A stretch of DNA of 36,745 nt from an uncultured Acidobacteriota bacterium (GTDB taxonomy: Bacteria > Acidobacteriota > Thermoanaerobaculia > Multivoradales > JAHEKO01), in the NCBI GenBank assembly GCA_963713825.1, contig CAVQNG010000022.1, positions 1 through 36,745 on the forward strand, read 5' to 3'. Below, piece by piece: positions 1 through 8,273 of this stretch. Every line of letters starts with the position of its first letter. Positions within the stretch are counted from its first letter, which is position 1. The notes under the pieces are model-generated. The model worked only from the letters and a program-made list of their open reading frames with translations. It was not told the DNA's origin and ran no database searches. A program made the translations under genes and the position numbers.

Positions 1-154
1 GATCGACCGACTCACAACTGCGATCGGCGGATTGAATCTGCTGTGGCGTGCTCGACGCGGCCGAGCTCGGGGTCCTCGGTCGGTACACCTCACCCATGCC
101 GCCTTCACCCAGCTTGGCGGTGATTCGGAAGTGGGAGAGGGTTGTGCCGATCAC
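1..154 (-). pseudogene. N-terminal remnant of a Ser/Thr kinase (Gly-rich loop only), frameshifted and truncated
   Basis: GTG at 154-152 overlaps the TGA of the upstream kinase (GTGA). It reads MIGTTLSHFRITAKLGEGGMGEVYR, then one base is missing near 80, and the shifted frame gives (A)EDPELGR. Kinase similarity is lost after about 57 and there is no VAIK. The original frame stays open to the window edge. Confidence 0.75.
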
Positions 155-2850
155 GGTCGCCTGAGATCGTTCTGCCAGTTGAGAACGAGGGCCATGGGCT
201 GTTGGTTCTGTTGCTCTTTCTGCTCGGTCTGCTTGACGACCAGGAATCGCTGACCGTCGGCGGTCACATCGTAGTCGAAGCCGTCGTTGAAGGGTCCGAG
301 CTCGAAAAGTGTTTCGGTGGCACCGACCTGGAAGGTGTCGCCCGAGCCGTCGACTTTGGTGGCCATCAGGGTGCCTTCGGCGGTCAGATAGAAGATCTCG
401 CTGCCATCGCGGCTCCAGCGTGGCCAGTCACCGCCGTCCGAGATCTGCCATTTGCGTCCGCCGCCAGGGAACGGGGTGACATAGATCTCCCATTGCCCGG
501 AATCGTCTCCCGCCCAGGCGAGCCACTGGCCGTCCGGAGAGACCATCGGGACCGTGTCGTTGAACTTCGTAGGCTGGAGGGGGATGGGCTCGCCCTCACC
601 CTGGACATCCCAGGCGAACATGTCTTCGCTGGTGCCGGTGTTGACTTGATAGATCAGGTAGCGACCGTCGGGGCTCCAGCTGGAGGGATAGCTCGTGCCT
701 TCTTGTTCGCGCAGGAGCTGCTCTTCGCCACCGCCGGTCATGGATTTCGCATAGAGCTGGAACGAGCCGGATCGGTTGGAGCTGAAGGCGATCGTATTCC
801 CATCCGGGGACCAGGCGACAAAGTAGTCTGCGCCGGTTTCGAAGGTGAAACGCGTCTCCAGCTCGCGATCGAGATCGAGCTGCCAGAGATCGGTGTTGCC
901 GCTTTCGAAGTCGGCTTTGCTGACGATGGCCTGATTGCCCACGGGTGACAGCTGCACCTCGATGTAGGAGTCGGGAGCGCCGATTTCGGAGAGGATCTCG
1001 CCCGAGCGGGACCTCCACTGCAGATTCGCCAGTACCGACTCACGGGCAGAACCCATCTGGTAGGCCAGGGTCCCCTGGTCGCTGACGGAAAATGAGCCGA
1101 GAACCGCTCCCATGTCGACATAGATGTTCTCGGCGAGTGGGAAGGCGTCGCCGGTAGTTTGTCGAGTCTCGGCATCGAAGGGTCGGGCCATCAACGTCTG
1201 ATCGAAGACGTAGAGGAGATGTCCCGCGGCATACTCGACGTTGGAGGTCGCCGGCATCAGCTCACTGACTTCGCCCGCCAACGAGCCGATCTTGATGCTG
1301 CTGTTCGAACCGGCTCCACCGCCCCCGGCCCGGGCCACGAATAGGAAGTGGTCGCCATTGGGTAGGAAGCGGGGGTGACGATGGCTGTCCTCTCCGAGCT
1401 TGGCGTCGAACTCGGTGAGCTCGACCGACTCTCCTCCTGCCGCGCTGACCTTGTGCAAAGGAGAGTTGTGGCTCGGCGCAAAGACGATGGTGCCGGCATC
1501 GTTCCAGGCGCCGCCTTTGCCGTTGGACGCCTCGCACAGGGCCATGGCCGGTCCACCGGTCGCCTCGATCTTCTTCAGCTTGCCGCCGGCGAAGAAGCCG
1601 ATGTGTCGACTGTCGGGGGACCAGAACGGGTAGAGGGCACCTTCGGTTCCAGTCAACGGCCTGGATTCCAGCTCGTCGAGGTCGCGGATCCAAAGCCGTT
1701 CGACCCCATCCTCACCGCGGATGCCGAAGGCCAAGGTGCGCCCATCGGGGGAAACCGCCACCGGGGCAGGGTAGTCCGAGCCCAGATTGAACTCTCCCCC
1801 TGGCGGAGCCGGAATGGACGCCCGCGTCGTTGGCTGCGGAGGAACTGGGTCTTGCGGCCAGAAGGCGATGGTCGCGGCCCCAACGATGGCCGATGCGGCG
1901 ACTGCCCAGGGGAGTAGCCGGCGCCAGGTGGGTAGCGGAGCGTAGTTGGCTGTGGCGGCTTGGGCCTTGGCAGCCTCAGGATCGGCCAGATAGCCGGCGA
2001 TGGCGATTCGAGCCTCGCCGATGGCCTGGAGCCGATCGTTGATCTCCTTCTGGAGACAGCGGTCGAGCAGGTTGCGGACGACCGGAGGCACGTCGGCGGG
2101 TAGCGCCTCCCATTCGGGCTCGCGGGCCAGGATTCCGGCCAGGGTGTCGGAGATGGTCTTGCCGGCGTAGACGGTCTGCCCGGTCAGCATCTCCATGACA
2201 ACGGCACCAAAGGCCCAGATGTCGGCTCGGCGGTCGGCGGCTTCGCCGCGGGCCTGCTCGGGGCTCATATAGGCAGCAGTGCCCAGCAACACCCCGGCTC
2301 CAGTGTTCATCTGCGCAGTCAGGGTAGGCGACAGGGAGAGAGAGGGGTGGCTCGGATCCGAGTCCGAACCGGCTCCGGACTCGAGAGCCTTGGCGAGGCC
2401 GAAGTCGAGAACCTTGATCTTGCCGCTTTCGGTGAAGTTGATGTTGGCCGGTTTGAGGTCCCGGTGCACGATGCCTCGGTCGTGGGCCGTTTCCAGGGCT
2501 TCGGCGATCTGCAAGGCAATGGTCATGGCTTCATCGAGGGACAATCGGCCTCGCTTGATCCTCTCAGCGAGAGTCTCGCCCTCCACCAGCTCCATGACCA
2601 GGAAGTTGTGGTCGTCGTCGTGCTCGACCTGGTAGATCGCGGCGATGTTGGGGTGATTCAGCGATGCCAGCACCTGGGCCTCGCGGCTAAAGCGAGCCAT
2701 GCGCTCGGCATCCTGCGCGAAGAGCTCGGGCAGCACCTTGATCGCCACCTCGCGTCCGAGCTTGGTGTCCTCGGCACGGTACACCTCGCCCATGCCGCCC
2801 TCGCCCAGCTTGCCGGTTATCTTGAAATGAGCCAGAGTCTCACCAATCAT
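151..2850 (-). CDS. Hanks-type Ser/Thr protein kinase with TM helix and C-terminal PD40/TolB-like beta-propeller repeats
   Basis: 899 aa. Motifs GEGGMG, VAIK, HRDLKPAN, DFG and YMSPE; TM segment LLPWAVAASAIVGAATIAFW; repeated (W/V)SPDG motifs; GAGGAG SD upstream. Confidence 0.95.
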   Translation of the reverse strand: MIGETLAHFKITGKLGEGGMGEVYRAEDTKLGREVAIKVLPELFAQDAERMARFSREAQVLASLNHPNIAAIYQVEHDDDHNFLVMELVEGETLAERIKRGRLSLDEAMTIALQIAEALETAHDRGIVHRDLKPANINFTESGKIKVLDFGLAKALESGAGSDSDPSHPSLSLSPTLTAQMNTGAGVLLGTAAYMSPEQARGEAADRRADIWAFGAVVMEMLTGQTVYAGKTISDTLAGILAREPEWEALPADVPPVVRNLLDRCLQKEINDRLQAIGEARIAIAGYLADPEAAKAQAATANYAPLPTWRRLLPWAVAASAIVGAATIAFWPQDPVPPQPTTRASIPAPPGGEFNLGSDYPAPVAVSPDGRTLAFGIRGEDGVERLWIRDLDELESRPLTGTEGALYPFWSPDSRHIGFFAGGKLKKIEATGGPAMALCEASNGKGGAWNDAGTIVFAPSHNSPLHKVSAAGGESVELTEFDAKLGEDSHRHPRFLPNGDHFLFVARAGGGGAGSNSSIKIGSLAGEVSELMPATSNVEYAAGHLLYVFDQTLMARPFDAETRQTTGDAFPLAENIYVDMGAVLGSFSVSDQGTLAYQMGSARESVLANLQWRSRSGEILSEIGAPDSYIEVQLSPVGNQAIVSKADFESGNTDLWQLDLDRELETRFTFETGADYFVAWSPDGNTIAFSSNRSGSFQLYAKSMTGGGEEQLLREQEGTSYPSSWSPDGRYLIYQVNTGTSEDMFAWDVQGEGEPIPLQPTKFNDTVPMVSPDGQWLAWAGDDSGQWEIYVTPFPGGGRKWQISDGGDWPRWSRDGSEIFYLTAEGTLMATKVDGSGDTFQVGATETLFELGPFNDGFDYDVTADGQRFLVVKQTEQKEQQNQQPMALVLNWQNDLRRP

Positions 2851-2997: not shown

Positions 2998-5241
<2,244 letters not shown>

Positions 5242-5713
5242 TGGTATTCCGCTCCAAGCGGCCGGGTTCTCTCGAGTCCGATCATCGAAAATTCAGCTCG
5301 CCCCGTTGTCGTTTCGTCGCTCTTGGCGGTGCTACTGGATTGTACTTCACTCCGAGGCGACCATCGTTGCAGCCTGCGTTGGAGTAGAATGCCTCAAATT
5401 CTGCGACAGCGACGCAAGAGGTTCGGTCGCCACGGCGGTCCGTCGGCATGACGGCCGTTTCAAGAGGAGTCACGCATGATCGGAACGACATTGGCGCATT
5501 TCAAGATCACCGGCAAGCTCGGTGAGGGTGGCATGGGTGAGGTCTATCGAGCTGAAGACAGCAAGTTGGGTCGGGAAGTGGCGATCAAGGTGCTACCAGA
5601 GTTGGTGGCCGGTGACGCCGAGCGCATGGCTCGTTTCGAGCGTGAAGCCAAGCTCCTCGCGGCCCTCAACCACCCCAACATCGGCGCGATCTATTCCCTT
5701 GAATCGCCGGACA

Positions 5714-5778
5714 GGCGGGGGCAAGCCCCGCTCCTACAGAGACCGATGCCGATGTAGGGGCGCCCCTTGCGGGCGCCC
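5714..5778. repeat. Back-to-back pair of GTAG-family REP hairpins (REP doublet)
   Basis: Minus strand 5738-5714 reads TGTAG-GA-GCGGGG-CTTGC-CCCCGC-C. Plus strand 5753-5778 reads TGTAG-GGGCGCCC-CTTGC-GGGCGCCC. Both have a GTAG foot, a GC stem and the same CTTGC loop. Confidence 0.8.
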
Positions 5779-5791
5779 GGGAGGGGGCGAG

Positions 5792-5819
5792 CCCAGGACC
5801 CAAGGCCCAAGACCCAGGT
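5792..5819 (+). repeat. Heptamer tandem repeat (CCCARGN)x4
   Basis: cccagga cccaagg cccaaga cccaggt, read directly from the sequence. Confidence 0.75.
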
Positions 5820-8273
5820 CTCCCGATCCACTTTCTCGTCCTGGAGCTCATCGAGGGCGAATCCCTCGCCGAGATCCTGGCGCGGGGCCCTCTCGGTCTC
5901 GAGAAGGCGATGCAGGTCGGGCAGCAGGTGGCCCTGGCCTTGGAGTCGGCCCACGACAAGGGGGTCATTCATCGTGACCTGAAACCGGCCAACGTCATGC
6001 TGACCCAGAATGGAAGCGTCAAGGTGCTGGATTTCGGTCTGGCCAAGGCCTGGGACGTAGAAGAGACCTCGGGCAGCGCTCCGCTGATCAGCCGTTCGCC
6101 AACCCTTACGCAAGGGATGACCGAGGTCGGCGTGCTGCTCGGTACCGCGGCCTACATGAGCCCGGAGCAGGCGCGCGGCAAGCCGGTCGACAAGCGATCG
6201 GACATCTGGGCCTTCGGCGCCGTGCTGCTCGAGACCCTGACCGGGCGCAAGGCCTTCGGCGGCGACACGATCACCGACATGATCGCTGCGGTCGTAGCGC
6301 GAGAGCCAGAGTGGGAGAGGCTACCGGCCGGTACTCCAAAAGCAGTGACTCGCCTGCTACGCCGCTGCCTCGAGAAAGACCAGGAGCAGCGCTTACGTGA
6401 CATTGGCGATGCGCGGTTGGAGCTCGAGGAGATGCTGGCCAATCCAGAAAGTCTGCACGCCGAGCCCGAGGTTGTGGCAGCATCTTCCAAGACCAGCCTG
6501 CTGTGGAAGGTTGGCGTCGCGGCACTGGCATTGCTGACAATGGGTCTGGGCTTTGCGCTGTGGCGTGCCAGTCAACCGGAACCGCAGCAGATCACCCGCG
6601 CCTTCATCCCGGCCCCGACTGGAGGGGATTACGACCTGGCCACCGACTATCCTGCCCCCGTGGCCGTCTCTCCGGATGGCCGTACTCTGGTTTTCGGGGT
6701 GCAGGAGGAAGAGATCAAGAGCCTTTGGGTGCGTGACCTCGACGACCTCGAGGCTCGCCCGCTGGCTGGAACCGAGGGGGCCATGTATCCGTTCTGGTCA
6801 CCTGACAATCGCCACATCGGTTTCTTCGCTCAAGGCAAGCTCAAGAAGATCGAAGTCGCCGGCGGTCCAGCGATGAGCCTCTGCGATGCTCCCAACGGCA
6901 AGGGAGGCAGTTGGAACGCAGATGGGATCATCGTCTTCGCGCCAGCCCACACCACAAACCTGCAGAGTGTGTCGTCCGCCGGAGGTGAGCCTACGGATGT
7001 CACCTCGGTCGACCCTGAGAAGGGTGAAGACAGCCACCGGCATCCGCGGTTTCTACCGGATGGGGAGCATTTCCTCTACGCCGCCCGTGTCGGTTTTGGA
7101 GGTTCGAGTGAAAACAGCCGGTTGATGATCGGTTCGCTGTCAGGCGAGTCCCGGGAGTTGATGCCCGGCTCCTCCAACGTCGAGTTCGCAGCCGGACATC
7201 TCCTCTACGTGTACGAGCGAACCCTGATGGCGCGGCCGTTCGATGCCAGTCAACTCGAGCTCACGGGGGATGCCTTTCCAATCGCCGAGGAGGTCTGGGG
7301 CGACCAGGGAGCCTTGCTGGGAGTCTTTTCAGCTAGCGAGAACGGAGTTCTCGCCTACCAGACCGGCACACCGCGCGAAGACGTGAACTCGCAACTGCAG
7401 TGGTTCGATCGCTCGGGCCAGATGCTGGGTGAGGTAGGAACTCCGGACCCCTACGCCGAAGTGAGCATCTCGCCGGATGGAACTACGGCGGTGGTCAACA
7501 AGAGGGATCCAGGGAGCTCCAATCGGGACCTCTGGCTGGTGGACCTGGAACGGCAGCTCAAGACGCGGTTCACCTTCGATCCGGCTCAGGATTGGATCGG
7601 TGTTTGGTCGCCGGACGGAGCCCGGATCGCGTTCAGCTCTGAGCGCAGCGGCACCGGGGACCTCTACGTCAAGTCGGTCACAGGTGGAGGTGAAGCGGAG
7701 CTGCTCTACGACGACGACACGCAGAAGTACCCGGCCTCCTGGAGCGGGGATGGACGGTATCTGTTCTACGAATCGTGGGGCTCCGGTGGGGAGTCCAACC
7801 TGTTCGCCCTCGATCTCGAAGAAGGCGGCGAACCAATGGCGATTCAGGCCTCCAACTTCTCCCAGAGAGTCCCAGTAATCTCACCCAATGGTCGATGGCT
7901 CGCCTACTCCAGCAACGAATCGGGACACAATGAGATCTATGTCACCGCCTTTCCTGAAGGTGGCAGAAAGTGGCAGGTCTCCACGCAGGAAACCGGCTAC
8001 GCGCGCTGGGGAAGCGACGAGGACCTCTTCCTGATGGGCCCCACGGGTGAGCTGCGGATTGCTGAGGTCGACGGCTCGAGTGAGACCTTTCGAATAGGCC
8101 CTATTCGGAAGATCGCCGACTTCAGGCTCCAGACTCTCGGTTTCGACTTCGACCCTTCGCCCGACGGTCAGCGAATCTTGATTTCGCAAGTCCTCGAAGA
8201 GGAGGGGCAGGGCGCCAAGATGAATCCCATGACCCTCGTCCTAGGCTGGACCGCGGACCTCGAGCGGCCTTAG

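Follow-up and report, generated by a model that had tools for sequence, protein, structure and literature searches.

How does a protein kinase gene come to carry a cluster of palindromes inside its catalytic N-lobe, and is the added peptide tolerated, used, or the mark of a broken gene? This question is raised by a Ser/Thr kinase gene located at positions 5476 to 8273 of the window, i.e., the whole stretch of 36,745 nucleotides analyzed here, which is the entire contig C22 (CAVQNG010000022.1) of the draft genome of an uncultured Acidobacteriota bacterium (GCA_963713825.1; assembly of 5.42 Mb in 38 contigs, 96.4% complete, 0.27% contamination). The reading that we favor, and consider probable, is that the insert at positions 5703 to 5826 is a mosaic of dispersed intergenic-type repeats carried in frame in a permissive, fast-turning loop between strands β4 and β5 of the kinase fold. 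The mosaic would combine GTAG-headed repetitive extragenic palindromic (REP) hairpins of two stem types with a 7-nt microsatellite, with a GAAGC-headed hairpin added in other paralogs, and its host would be a Hanks-type Ser/Thr kinase in which a membrane segment and a PD40 propeller are fused to the kinase domain.

The insert and its reading frame

The insert is composed of the following units (positions are those of the window).

5703..5826, plus strand: variable insert of the β4-β5 loop, 124 nt in the window and 125 nt in the intact copies, read as SAGQAGASPAPTETDADVGAPLAGAREGASPGPKAQDPGLP
5714..5738, minus strand: GTAG REP hairpin of type A, TGTAGGAGCGGGGCTTGCCCCCGCC on the minus strand; the coding strand translates to (Q)AGASPAPT
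5739..5752, plus strand: 14-nt spacer between the two GTAG heads
5753..5778, plus strand: GTAG REP hairpin of type B, TGTAGGGGCGCCCCTTGCGGGCGCCC, translating to DVGAPLAGA
5779..5794, plus strand: half type-A unit in reverse orientation, GGGAGGGGGCGAGCCC, translating to REGAS (from the comparison with intergenic doublets and from direct repeat D2)
5792..5818, plus strand: heptamer array (CCCARGN) of about four units, translating to PGPKAQDPG

Hairpins A and B are both stem-loop palindromes of 20 to 40 nt with GTAG at one end, as is characteristic of GTAG-tagged REPs. Each has a TGTAG head and a CTTGC loop, with a 6-bp stem in hairpin A (DNA fold of -7.7 kcal/mol, z -2.1 versus shuffles) and an 8-bp stem in hairpin B (-11.7 kcal/mol, z -2.4). 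A preliminary description of this DNA, made from the sequence alone, had reported these two hairpins at 5714-5738 on the minus strand and 5753-5778 on the plus strand, their CTTGC loops and a (CCCARGN)x4 array, all of which we found; the array has a period of 7 and 3.6 copies, and the motif (CCCARGN)x3 gave two overlapping matches in the window versus none in 100 shuffles. The hairpins had also been called an outward-facing REP doublet. Two GTAG hairpins are present, but their heads face each other over the 14-nt spacer, whereas the intergenic doublets of the same family have their heads outside. Hairpin B and the half unit at 5779-5794 together form a truncated canonical doublet, indicating that the insert consists of approximately 2.5 REP units followed by heptamers.

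The fold of the hairpins could suggest a role for the nucleic acid itself, such as pausing ribosomes, stabilizing the transcript, or, as recombination hot spots, driving gene conversion among tandem kinase paralogs. In addition to the single-stranded folding of both hairpins, this proposal can invoke the tandem kinase arrays, which carry the same modules at gene boundaries. However, the RNA segment 5700-5830 as a whole did not fold better than shuffles (z -1.0), leading us to claim no mRNA element spanning the entire insert; the mRNA structure anticipated in the preliminary description was not supported. Many orthologous loops are also devoid of recognizable hairpins although the genes are intact, and we hold a nucleic-acid role to be extremely improbable.

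The gene and the paralog used for comparison comprise the following features.

5476..5705, plus strand: N-terminal part of the Ser/Thr kinase gene, starting at ATG 5476 and coding for residues 1 to 76 and the first two bases of codon 77; it encodes the glycine-rich loop, VAIK, helix C and strand β4 (IYSLE), according to the translation, the Pfam Pkinase match on the intact sister copy and the AlphaFold2 model
5705..5706, plus strand: frameshift point, where the T of the sister copies (gaatcTgccgg) is missing in the three-way alignment of C22, C21 and C5
5829..8273, plus strand: remainder of the kinase gene in the downstream frame, with stop codon 8271-8273; it encodes strand β5 (HFLVLE), the catalytic and activation segments, a predicted membrane segment and a PD40/TolB-like β-propeller
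151..2850, minus strand: paralogous kinase with the short canonical loop IYQVE-HDDDHN-FLVME, the reference paralog of the preliminary description

The window copy of the kinase gene is split by a frameshift located within the repeat-bearing segment. The frame starting at ATG 5476 runs through HPNIGAIYSLE and ends at a TAG codon (5755-5757) inside the GTAG of hairpin B, and the downstream kinase frame first opens at 5703, reads IAGQAGASPAPTETDADVGAPLAGAREGASPGPKAQDPGLPIHFLVLELIEG, and extends over 856 codons to the stop codon at 8271-8273, with no further disabling mutation downstream of the missing T. The insert had been described as stop-free in the downstream kinase frame. That frame is indeed open from 5703, but the gene is discontinuous in the window, and two of the three forward frames are open across the insert, the third forward frame included; a stop-free reading is thus weak evidence of coding on its own, and we dropped it as a proof.

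A comparison is provided by the assembly itself, in which the 37-kb region exists in three versions, i.e., the C22 window, C21 (97.2% identity) and C5:65538-104023 (93.3%), resulting from either segmental triplication or co-binning of strain variants. In both C21 and C5, an additional T follows the position equivalent to 5705, the sequence around the insert being otherwise nearly identical. With this T restored, the gene encodes an intact protein of 932 amino acids in which the mosaic is read in frame, and which matches Pkinase over residues 10 to 307 (E 1.7e-43) and further comprises PD40/TolB-like propeller repeats and a predicted membrane segment. In the corrected frame, counting from ATG 5476 gives 43 residues at the place where the paralog at 151-2850 has six, in agreement with the numbers originally given for both genes. 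The T behind position 5705 was also found in one public salt-marsh metagenome contig (run X1, depth 2.5, single contig), and the site is not a homopolymer. The missing T is most likely an assembly or consensus error or a rare null allele, and we favor an error. The kinase genes affected by frameshifts differ from one regional version to another; the paralog at 151-2850, for instance, is intact on C22 and split into three frames on C21.

Alternatively, the window gene might be a pseudogene broken by the insertion of a selfish repeat, the coding potential of the insert being an accident of G+C richness. The frameshift itself, the low cost of a stop-free reading with two of three forward frames open, and the normally extragenic location of REPs, as given in the portions of the survey of Di Nocera, De Gregorio and Rocco (PMC3733652) available to us, can all be adduced for this explanation. 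It is nonetheless highly improbable, considering that the insert is in frame in two sister copies and in four orthologs, all intact over approximately 930 amino acids, that the missing T is present in a metagenome contig, and that the catalytic motifs are conserved.

The AlphaFold2 model of residues 1 to 330, based on a 62-sequence alignment, shows a confident bilobal fold (mean predicted local distance difference test score [pLDDT], 82.7; predicted template modeling score, 0.80). Strands β4 and β5 correspond to residues 72 to 78 and 118 to 124, respectively, and the intervening residues 79 to 117 were modeled as coil devoid of secondary structure, with a pLDDT of 53 to 58. K38, HRD (166 to 168) and DFG (186 to 188) were invariant in the alignment, and the intact copy has the features of a Hanks-type Ser/Thr kinase (PF00069), to which the window copy conforms after a 1-nt correction. 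The model suggests that the insert is probably a disordered surface loop on an otherwise normal kinase, as expected from the earlier proposal that the surface loop preceding β5 is a tolerated landing site. The intact sister copies, the orthologs and the coil position together display the attributes of Rickettsia palindromic elements (RPEs), namely, an in-frame repeat in an otherwise intact gene at a tolerated surface position. The insert is presumably translated in vivo. The RNA runs X19 and X20 contained only 6 to 7% of the sequence words.

Repeat families and occupation of the loop

The modules of the insert belong to families dispersed in the genome. As the preliminary description had called for, both hairpins were counted genome-wide: hairpin A has 3 exact copies (those of the three regional versions), 14 copies with at most one mismatch and 50 with at most four, and hairpin B has 4, 5 and 23 copies, respectively. 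The 13-nt REP cores gave 115 matches with at most one mismatch (79 of type A and 36 of type B). A degenerate type-A pattern was found 63 times in this genome and its reversed control not once in all 31 genomes searched. The pattern was present in all five congeners (14 to 65 matches each), in 1 of 13 other genera of the family (12 matches) and in two genomes from other families of the order (112 and 20 matches); 9 of the 31 genomes were positive overall, and 22 had no match. The numerous dispersed copies common to close relatives are typical of GTAG REPs, as is pairing in inverted orientation. The latter is seen at many loci in the form of a canonical intergenic doublet, consisting of TGTAG-A, three bases and reverse B-CTACA, arranged tail to tail, whereas the two full units of the window stand head to head. 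Most of the REP copies lie in short open frames (the contigs have no gene annotation), and the coding contexts that we verified are kinase loops, one nSTAND1 linker and one AP_endonuc_2 tail.

The other modules are also dispersed. Arrays of the heptamers CCCAGGA/CCCAAGN occupy 44 loci genome-wide (9 loci for the reversed pattern) and contain as many as six perfect units; six-unit CCCAGGA arrays are located at G000:C3:1673339-1673380 and G000:C25:405262-405303, the prefix G000 referring to this genome. Heptamer arrays also occur directly 5' of kinase start codons, e.g., at C5:50382 and C3:1773802. The GAAGC-headed GGCCGG...CCGGCC hairpin has 57 genomic copies, versus none for the control, and 10 of these are located at most 80 nt from a GTAG core. 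Its family form is TTGAAGCGGCCGG-N8-CCGGCC, often found just 5' of kinase start codons.

The kinase family is greatly expanded, since 97 open frames match the kinase domain in the 5.4-Mb genome. Approximately 35 of these frames are in tandem arrays in the first 171 kb of C5 (chiefly C5:6000-171000), and the window holds at least six kinase genes. The N-lobe could be aligned for 81 of the 97 frames, and the length of the loop segment was distributed as follows.

Canonical segment (29 residues, from L-x-H-P-N-I to ...M-E-L-V-E-G): 62 rows of 81
Canonical segment plus 1 or 2 residues: 7 rows of 81
Canonical segment plus 6 to 37 residues, always between β4 and β5: 12 rows of 81

At three more loci, including that of the window, the frame is shifted inside the insert, so that 12 of the 15 insert-bearing loci are in frame. 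This count is in favor of the in-frame lengths proposed earlier as a test, and the carriers are not only decayed genes but also intact ones with the catalytic motifs of kinases. The inserts of two paralogs contain a complete reverse type-A unit, read REGASPSPT, and that of another contains a half unit followed by YAAGCCCC octamers, which, judging from their sequence, look like slipped copies of the stem and loop of the hairpin itself. Heptamer arrays, read PGPKPQDPG, are present in several inserts and the GAAGC hairpin in those of two tandem paralogs; three short acidic inserts contain no recognizable repeat. Of the 115 REP cores, 9 are located in 76 loop windows representing 0.34% of the genome, for 0.39 expected. 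The remainder of the 230 kb of kinase reading frames contained no cores other than two located 5' of a probable start codon and a third close to a C-terminus.

The heptamers raise the possibility that slippage of 7-nt arrays, or of half-REP octamers, toggles single kinases off and on within a population, as in contingency loci. The unit is not a multiple of 3, and 3 of the 15 insert-bearing loci are frameshifted within the insert. Moreover, a kinase near 107.8 kb of C5 loses its frame precisely where its loop contains a perfect (CCCAGGA)x4 (C5:107811-107838), and the gain of one heptamer unit or the loss of two would restore its frame. The intragenic tracts are, however, short (three to four units), and the frameshifts of the window gene and of the insert-bearing locus near C5:50.1 kb are single-base indels located outside the heptamers. 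Frameshifts also occur outside the loop in kinase genes of this genome, as would be expected from errors of assembly or from ordinary decay. The length of the heptamer tract did not vary among metagenome contigs, with a cover of only 0.7 to 4.4 over 5792-5832 and with contigs dropping rare variants. We consider switching of this kind very unlikely.

A quick maximum-likelihood tree was constructed for 64 kinase domains after removal of the insert columns. It excluded the C21 and C22 duplicates of C5 genes, with the exception of the intact copy, and rows that did not span most of the domain, including frameshifted genes. Most of the insert-bearing genes were in one well-supported clade of 14 rows, interleaved with canonical-loop genes. 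As an arbiter of gain versus loss, the tree was not decisive, since gain, loss and gene conversion were not separated. The inserts of paralogs and congeners have junction residues in common, namely, S-x-x-E-R-E-G on the left and P-S-I/V-H on the right, indicating that an enlarged loop was the common ancestor of many of the inserts within the genus.

The content of the loop differs between species. Full-length orthologs from four congeners (78 to 85% identical, no internal stops) all contained an insert, with a different content in each: a single complete reverse type-A unit plus octamers in one, heptamers only in another, and degenerate remnants in the other two. Their loop segments comprise 72, 61, 77 and 67 residues, versus 66 in the intact copy of the genome under study, and the right-hand part, L-S-P-Q-A-P-T-P...P-S-V-H, is retained in the four. 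Other congener kinases have a complete B plus reverse-A doublet in the loop, read IVAAPLAGAREGTSPSPT, or a loop segment of 100 residues with three REP units and arrays. A database protein that is 93% identical in the kinase domain contains, on the same scaffold, REPs of other types. Content also differs between natural strains. All four metagenome runs, from four studies (sediment and salt marsh), contained a contig whose flanks are nearly the same as those of the window but in which 92 other letters lie between 5702 and 5827; the difference from the 125 nt of the intact insert is 33 nt, indicating that this alternative allele is in frame.

The closest homologue found outside the genus is 60% identical and has a canonical loop, and enlarged loops were found in other kinases of the subfamily in three genera. 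In the genome G036, from a genus other than that of the window, the loop of a kinase (L036, G036:C352) contains three tandem 21-nt units, encoding AGEAAET-like heptapeptides, followed by a GAAGC hairpin. In the genome G009, which also belongs to a different genus and has no copy of the GTAG REP, the kinase loop contains a palindrome belonging to an 11-locus family that is restricted to G009 among the four genomes searched. The presence of unrelated repeat families in the same loop of different lineages indicates that shared ancestry alone is not sufficient to account for the inserts.

A database search seeded on residues 45 to 165 retrieved 2124 proteins at E ≤ 1e-10 among 8000 scored candidates, and the best 120 were examined. 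The loop could be parsed for 114 of these: 48 had the canonical segment, 5 had 30 to 34 residues, and 61 had 48 to 95 residues, a share of long loops inflated by search words that came in part from the insert. Many of the long loops contain REP-encoded peptides, including one protein with three tandem WEGTSPSPT units. Repeat-derived inserts thus recur at this site in paralogs, orthologs and database relatives, as had been anticipated. More distant kinases of the family (P0071, P0114, P0038, P0120 and others) have loop peptides such as CHSERAERVEESPE, VIPSEQSESRDP and NSKLKTQNSKL, which look, from their sequence, like translations of other dispersed palindromes or of AT-rich repeats.

The same modules were found in frame in proteins other than kinases. 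A 1335-residue frame (G000:C33:1903-5907, L005) matches nSTAND1 (E 6.3e-95, two stretches) and WD40. Three modules are read in frame in its linker (residues 434 to 463; REP units at approximately 3207-3291), namely, the GAAGC hairpin, one type-A unit in forward and one type-B unit in reverse orientation, and the nSTAND1 profile match is interrupted there. Exactly the same linker in the homologues of four congeners carries one REP, two REPs, the GAAGC module only, or unrelated sequence. A REP doublet is also located within the C-terminal tail of an AP_endonuc_2 (xylose isomerase-like) frame (G000:C5:545504-547273, minus strand, L006), where the repeat may have replaced or extended the native C terminus. 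The similar behavior of a STAND NTPase linker argues for general tolerance rather than for a mechanism specific to kinases.

These data bear on the possibility that the loop is hypervariable because it is adaptive, REP turnover yielding selected Ser/Thr/Pro-rich peptides that would diversify the regulation of a large sensor-kinase repertoire. Candidate roles for such peptides would be autophosphorylation sites, docking sites, or a spacer near helix C. Intact genes have kept the enlarged loop throughout the genus and also in other genera, segments of 48 to 95 amino acids are found in 61 of the 114 parsed relatives among the best 120, and 12 of 15 loci are in frame. In addition, the reverse type-A unit always reads R/Q-E/A-G-A/T-S-P-x-P-T in verified proteins, and the right-hand motif is retained in the four orthologs. 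Against this, the peptide content is not conserved between orthologs, save for what the DNA repeats dictate; the modules found in the STAND NTPase linker and the AP_endonuc_2 tail are better explained by general tolerance; the constancy of the frame may stem from shared ancestry; and the database survey is skewed toward long loops. An adaptive loop is in our opinion unlikely, and the diversification or regulation mechanism put forward in the preliminary description for this kinase family was not supported. The added peptide is presumably near-neutral.

Mobilization of the repeats and weight of the evidence

In search of the enzyme mobilizing the repeats, we identified four genes of 313 to 363 residues with a Y1_Tnp match in this genome, scoring 50 to 61 bits against the NCBIfam model NF047646 of REP-associated tyrosine transposases (RAYTs), for which the cutoff is 80. 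RAYTs scoring above the cutoff were found in congeners G004 and G005 and in the more distant G024, one in each. The RAYT of G004 (G004:C114), the only one of that congener to pass the cutoff, is flanked by inverted GAAGC hairpins (L069:1252-1277 and 1839-1864; 26-nt arms, 92% complementary, 561 nt apart), indicating that the GAAGC module, and not the GTAG hairpins, is tied to a RAYT. The RAYT of G005 (L070) has no flanking inverted repeat at all. A RAYT flanked by GTAG hairpins, which the preliminary description had proposed to search for, was found neither in this genome nor with the true RAYTs of G004 and G005. The idea of a RAYT adjoining the GTAG hairpins was rejected for the four HUH genes of this genome (no REP core within 6 kb) and for the RAYTs of G004, G005 and G024 (no unit within 1.5 kb). 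The GTAG hairpins may be moved by a RAYT-type HUH transposase acting in trans. Target mimicry, in which insertion would be attracted by the kinase codons ATC-TAC, which give CTAC, the complement of the GTAG head, was set aside as speculation; the window gene has ATC-TAT.

Under the reading that we favor, one kinase subclade would long have carried the enlarged loop, in which the mosaic would be read as a Gly/Ala/Ser/Pro/Thr-rich and probably disordered peptide leaving the catalytic core unaffected. The loop would then act as a sink for the palindromic repeats active in each genome, with units being gained, lost, swapped, or partly duplicated by slippage, and with selection on the kinase purging most frameshifted or stop-containing variants. 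The expected outcome would be a loop differing between paralogs, between orthologs of sister species and between natural strains.

Several observations weigh against this scenario. The window copy is frameshifted, as are two more insert-bearing loci within the insert, meaning that some insert-bearing kinase genes may be dying or that the draft assembly may contain indel errors, and the T allele is supported by a single low-depth metagenome contig. The best tree requires seven changes of loop state, and well-supported branches impose at least four; when the labels were shuffled 500 times, values as low were obtained in 34 cases. Many inserts within the genus share ancestry, as shown by their common junction residues, and truly independent insertions may be fewer than the insert-bearing loci. 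The search words of the database survey came in part from the insert, as mentioned above. No REP core was found within 6 kb of any of the four HUH genes of this genome, in an assembly that is 96.4% complete and from which a cognate RAYT gene may be missing, and no GTAG A or B unit was found within 1.5 kb of the RAYTs of G004, G005 and G024. Finally, the reverse type-A unit is read in a single frame in every verified carrier protein, which could reflect selection on the peptide rather than neutrality.

A bolder scheme, which we rate as quite unlikely, would make the β4-β5 loop an evolved landing pad, where a conserved coding DNA or replication context draws hairpins and where turnover combined with 7-nt slippage serves as a diversity generator and an on/off switch for approximately 80 membrane sensor kinases per genome. 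If true, domesticated selfish DNA would here drive a bacterial counterpart of hypervariable receptor loops.

The favored reading has implications of its own. In-frame REPs have so far been scattered curiosities, and here a defined loop of a well-understood fold is repeatedly occupied. The natural allele series makes it testable whether REPs land at random and are then filtered by selection or have preferred intragenic targets, and whether the peptides that they add are neutral or used. Loops of this type disrupt gene calls and alignments in metagenome-assembled genomes and give apparent frameshifts, as in the window; they can also be used as strain markers. Finally, bacterial Hanks kinases can accommodate at least 70 additional residues in the β4-β5 loop, a property of use in protein engineering.

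Comparison with known systems

Phase-variable contingency loci contain, within coding regions, tandem repeats with a unit length not divisible by three. The kinase loops are similar in having non-triplet tandem repeats in reading frames, with one kinase out of frame exactly at the tract, but the tracts are short, and no length polymorphism was observed in the metagenome contigs at the cover indicated above.

REPIN-RAYT systems and clusters of REPs in bacterial interspersed mosaic elements (BIMEs) are reportedly described in work by Bertels and Rainey from 2011 and by Ton-Hoang and colleagues from 2012. Features in common are GTAG hairpins in inverted doublets, mosaic clusters with other short motifs, and RAYT-type HUH genes in the lineage, and the mosaic of the window resembles, by analogy, a BIME cluster of E. 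coli. Unlike in REPIN-RAYT systems, no RAYT flanked by GTAG hairpins was found in this genome or in the congeners G004 and G005, the RAYT of one congener is flanked by the GAAGC hairpin, and the copies considered here are intragenic.

RPEs (Ogata et al. 2000) and other in-frame repeats have been reviewed (PMC10969869, PMC3184786). To the extent covered by the accessible parts of these reviews, RPEs are selfish palindromes present in frame in functional genes, with the extra peptide in tolerated surface regions, as in the kinase loop. They differ in being approximately 150 bp long (PMC10969869) and in occupying differing sites of unrelated genes, whereas the kinase inserts consist of 25-nt GTAG hairpins and microsatellites turning over at one fixed site.

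The closest precedent is the survey introduced above (Di Nocera, De Gregorio and Rocco 2013, PMC3733652), which, in the sections available, reports GTAG and CGTC REPs inside genes of several species. Intragenic dimers encode 20 to 30 residues and clusters 43 to 82; the carriers include a Ser/Thr kinase of Opitutus terrae (residues 625 to 640; supplementary file 3); different REPs are found at about the same site in the orthologous recB genes of two Xanthomonas species; and the inserts are argued to occupy flexible linkers. In-frame GTAG REPs are thus, as a phenomenon, already published. As in those cases, the repeats found here are short, dispersed GTAG palindromes, in frame and often in dimers or clusters. 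Unlike the cases in the same sections, many paralogs and orthologs have repeats in one and the same N-lobe loop, the repeats that fill it change from species to species and from strain to strain, the families found there in different genera are unrelated, and the host is an uncultured sediment lineage of the Acidobacteriota. In the literature that we searched, we found no report of the loop of one fold being occupied across many paralogs and species, of strain-level replacement of content, or of unrelated repeat families in one loop. Compared with these known systems, what is new here is the recurrence of the repeats at one loop and the fast turnover of their content.

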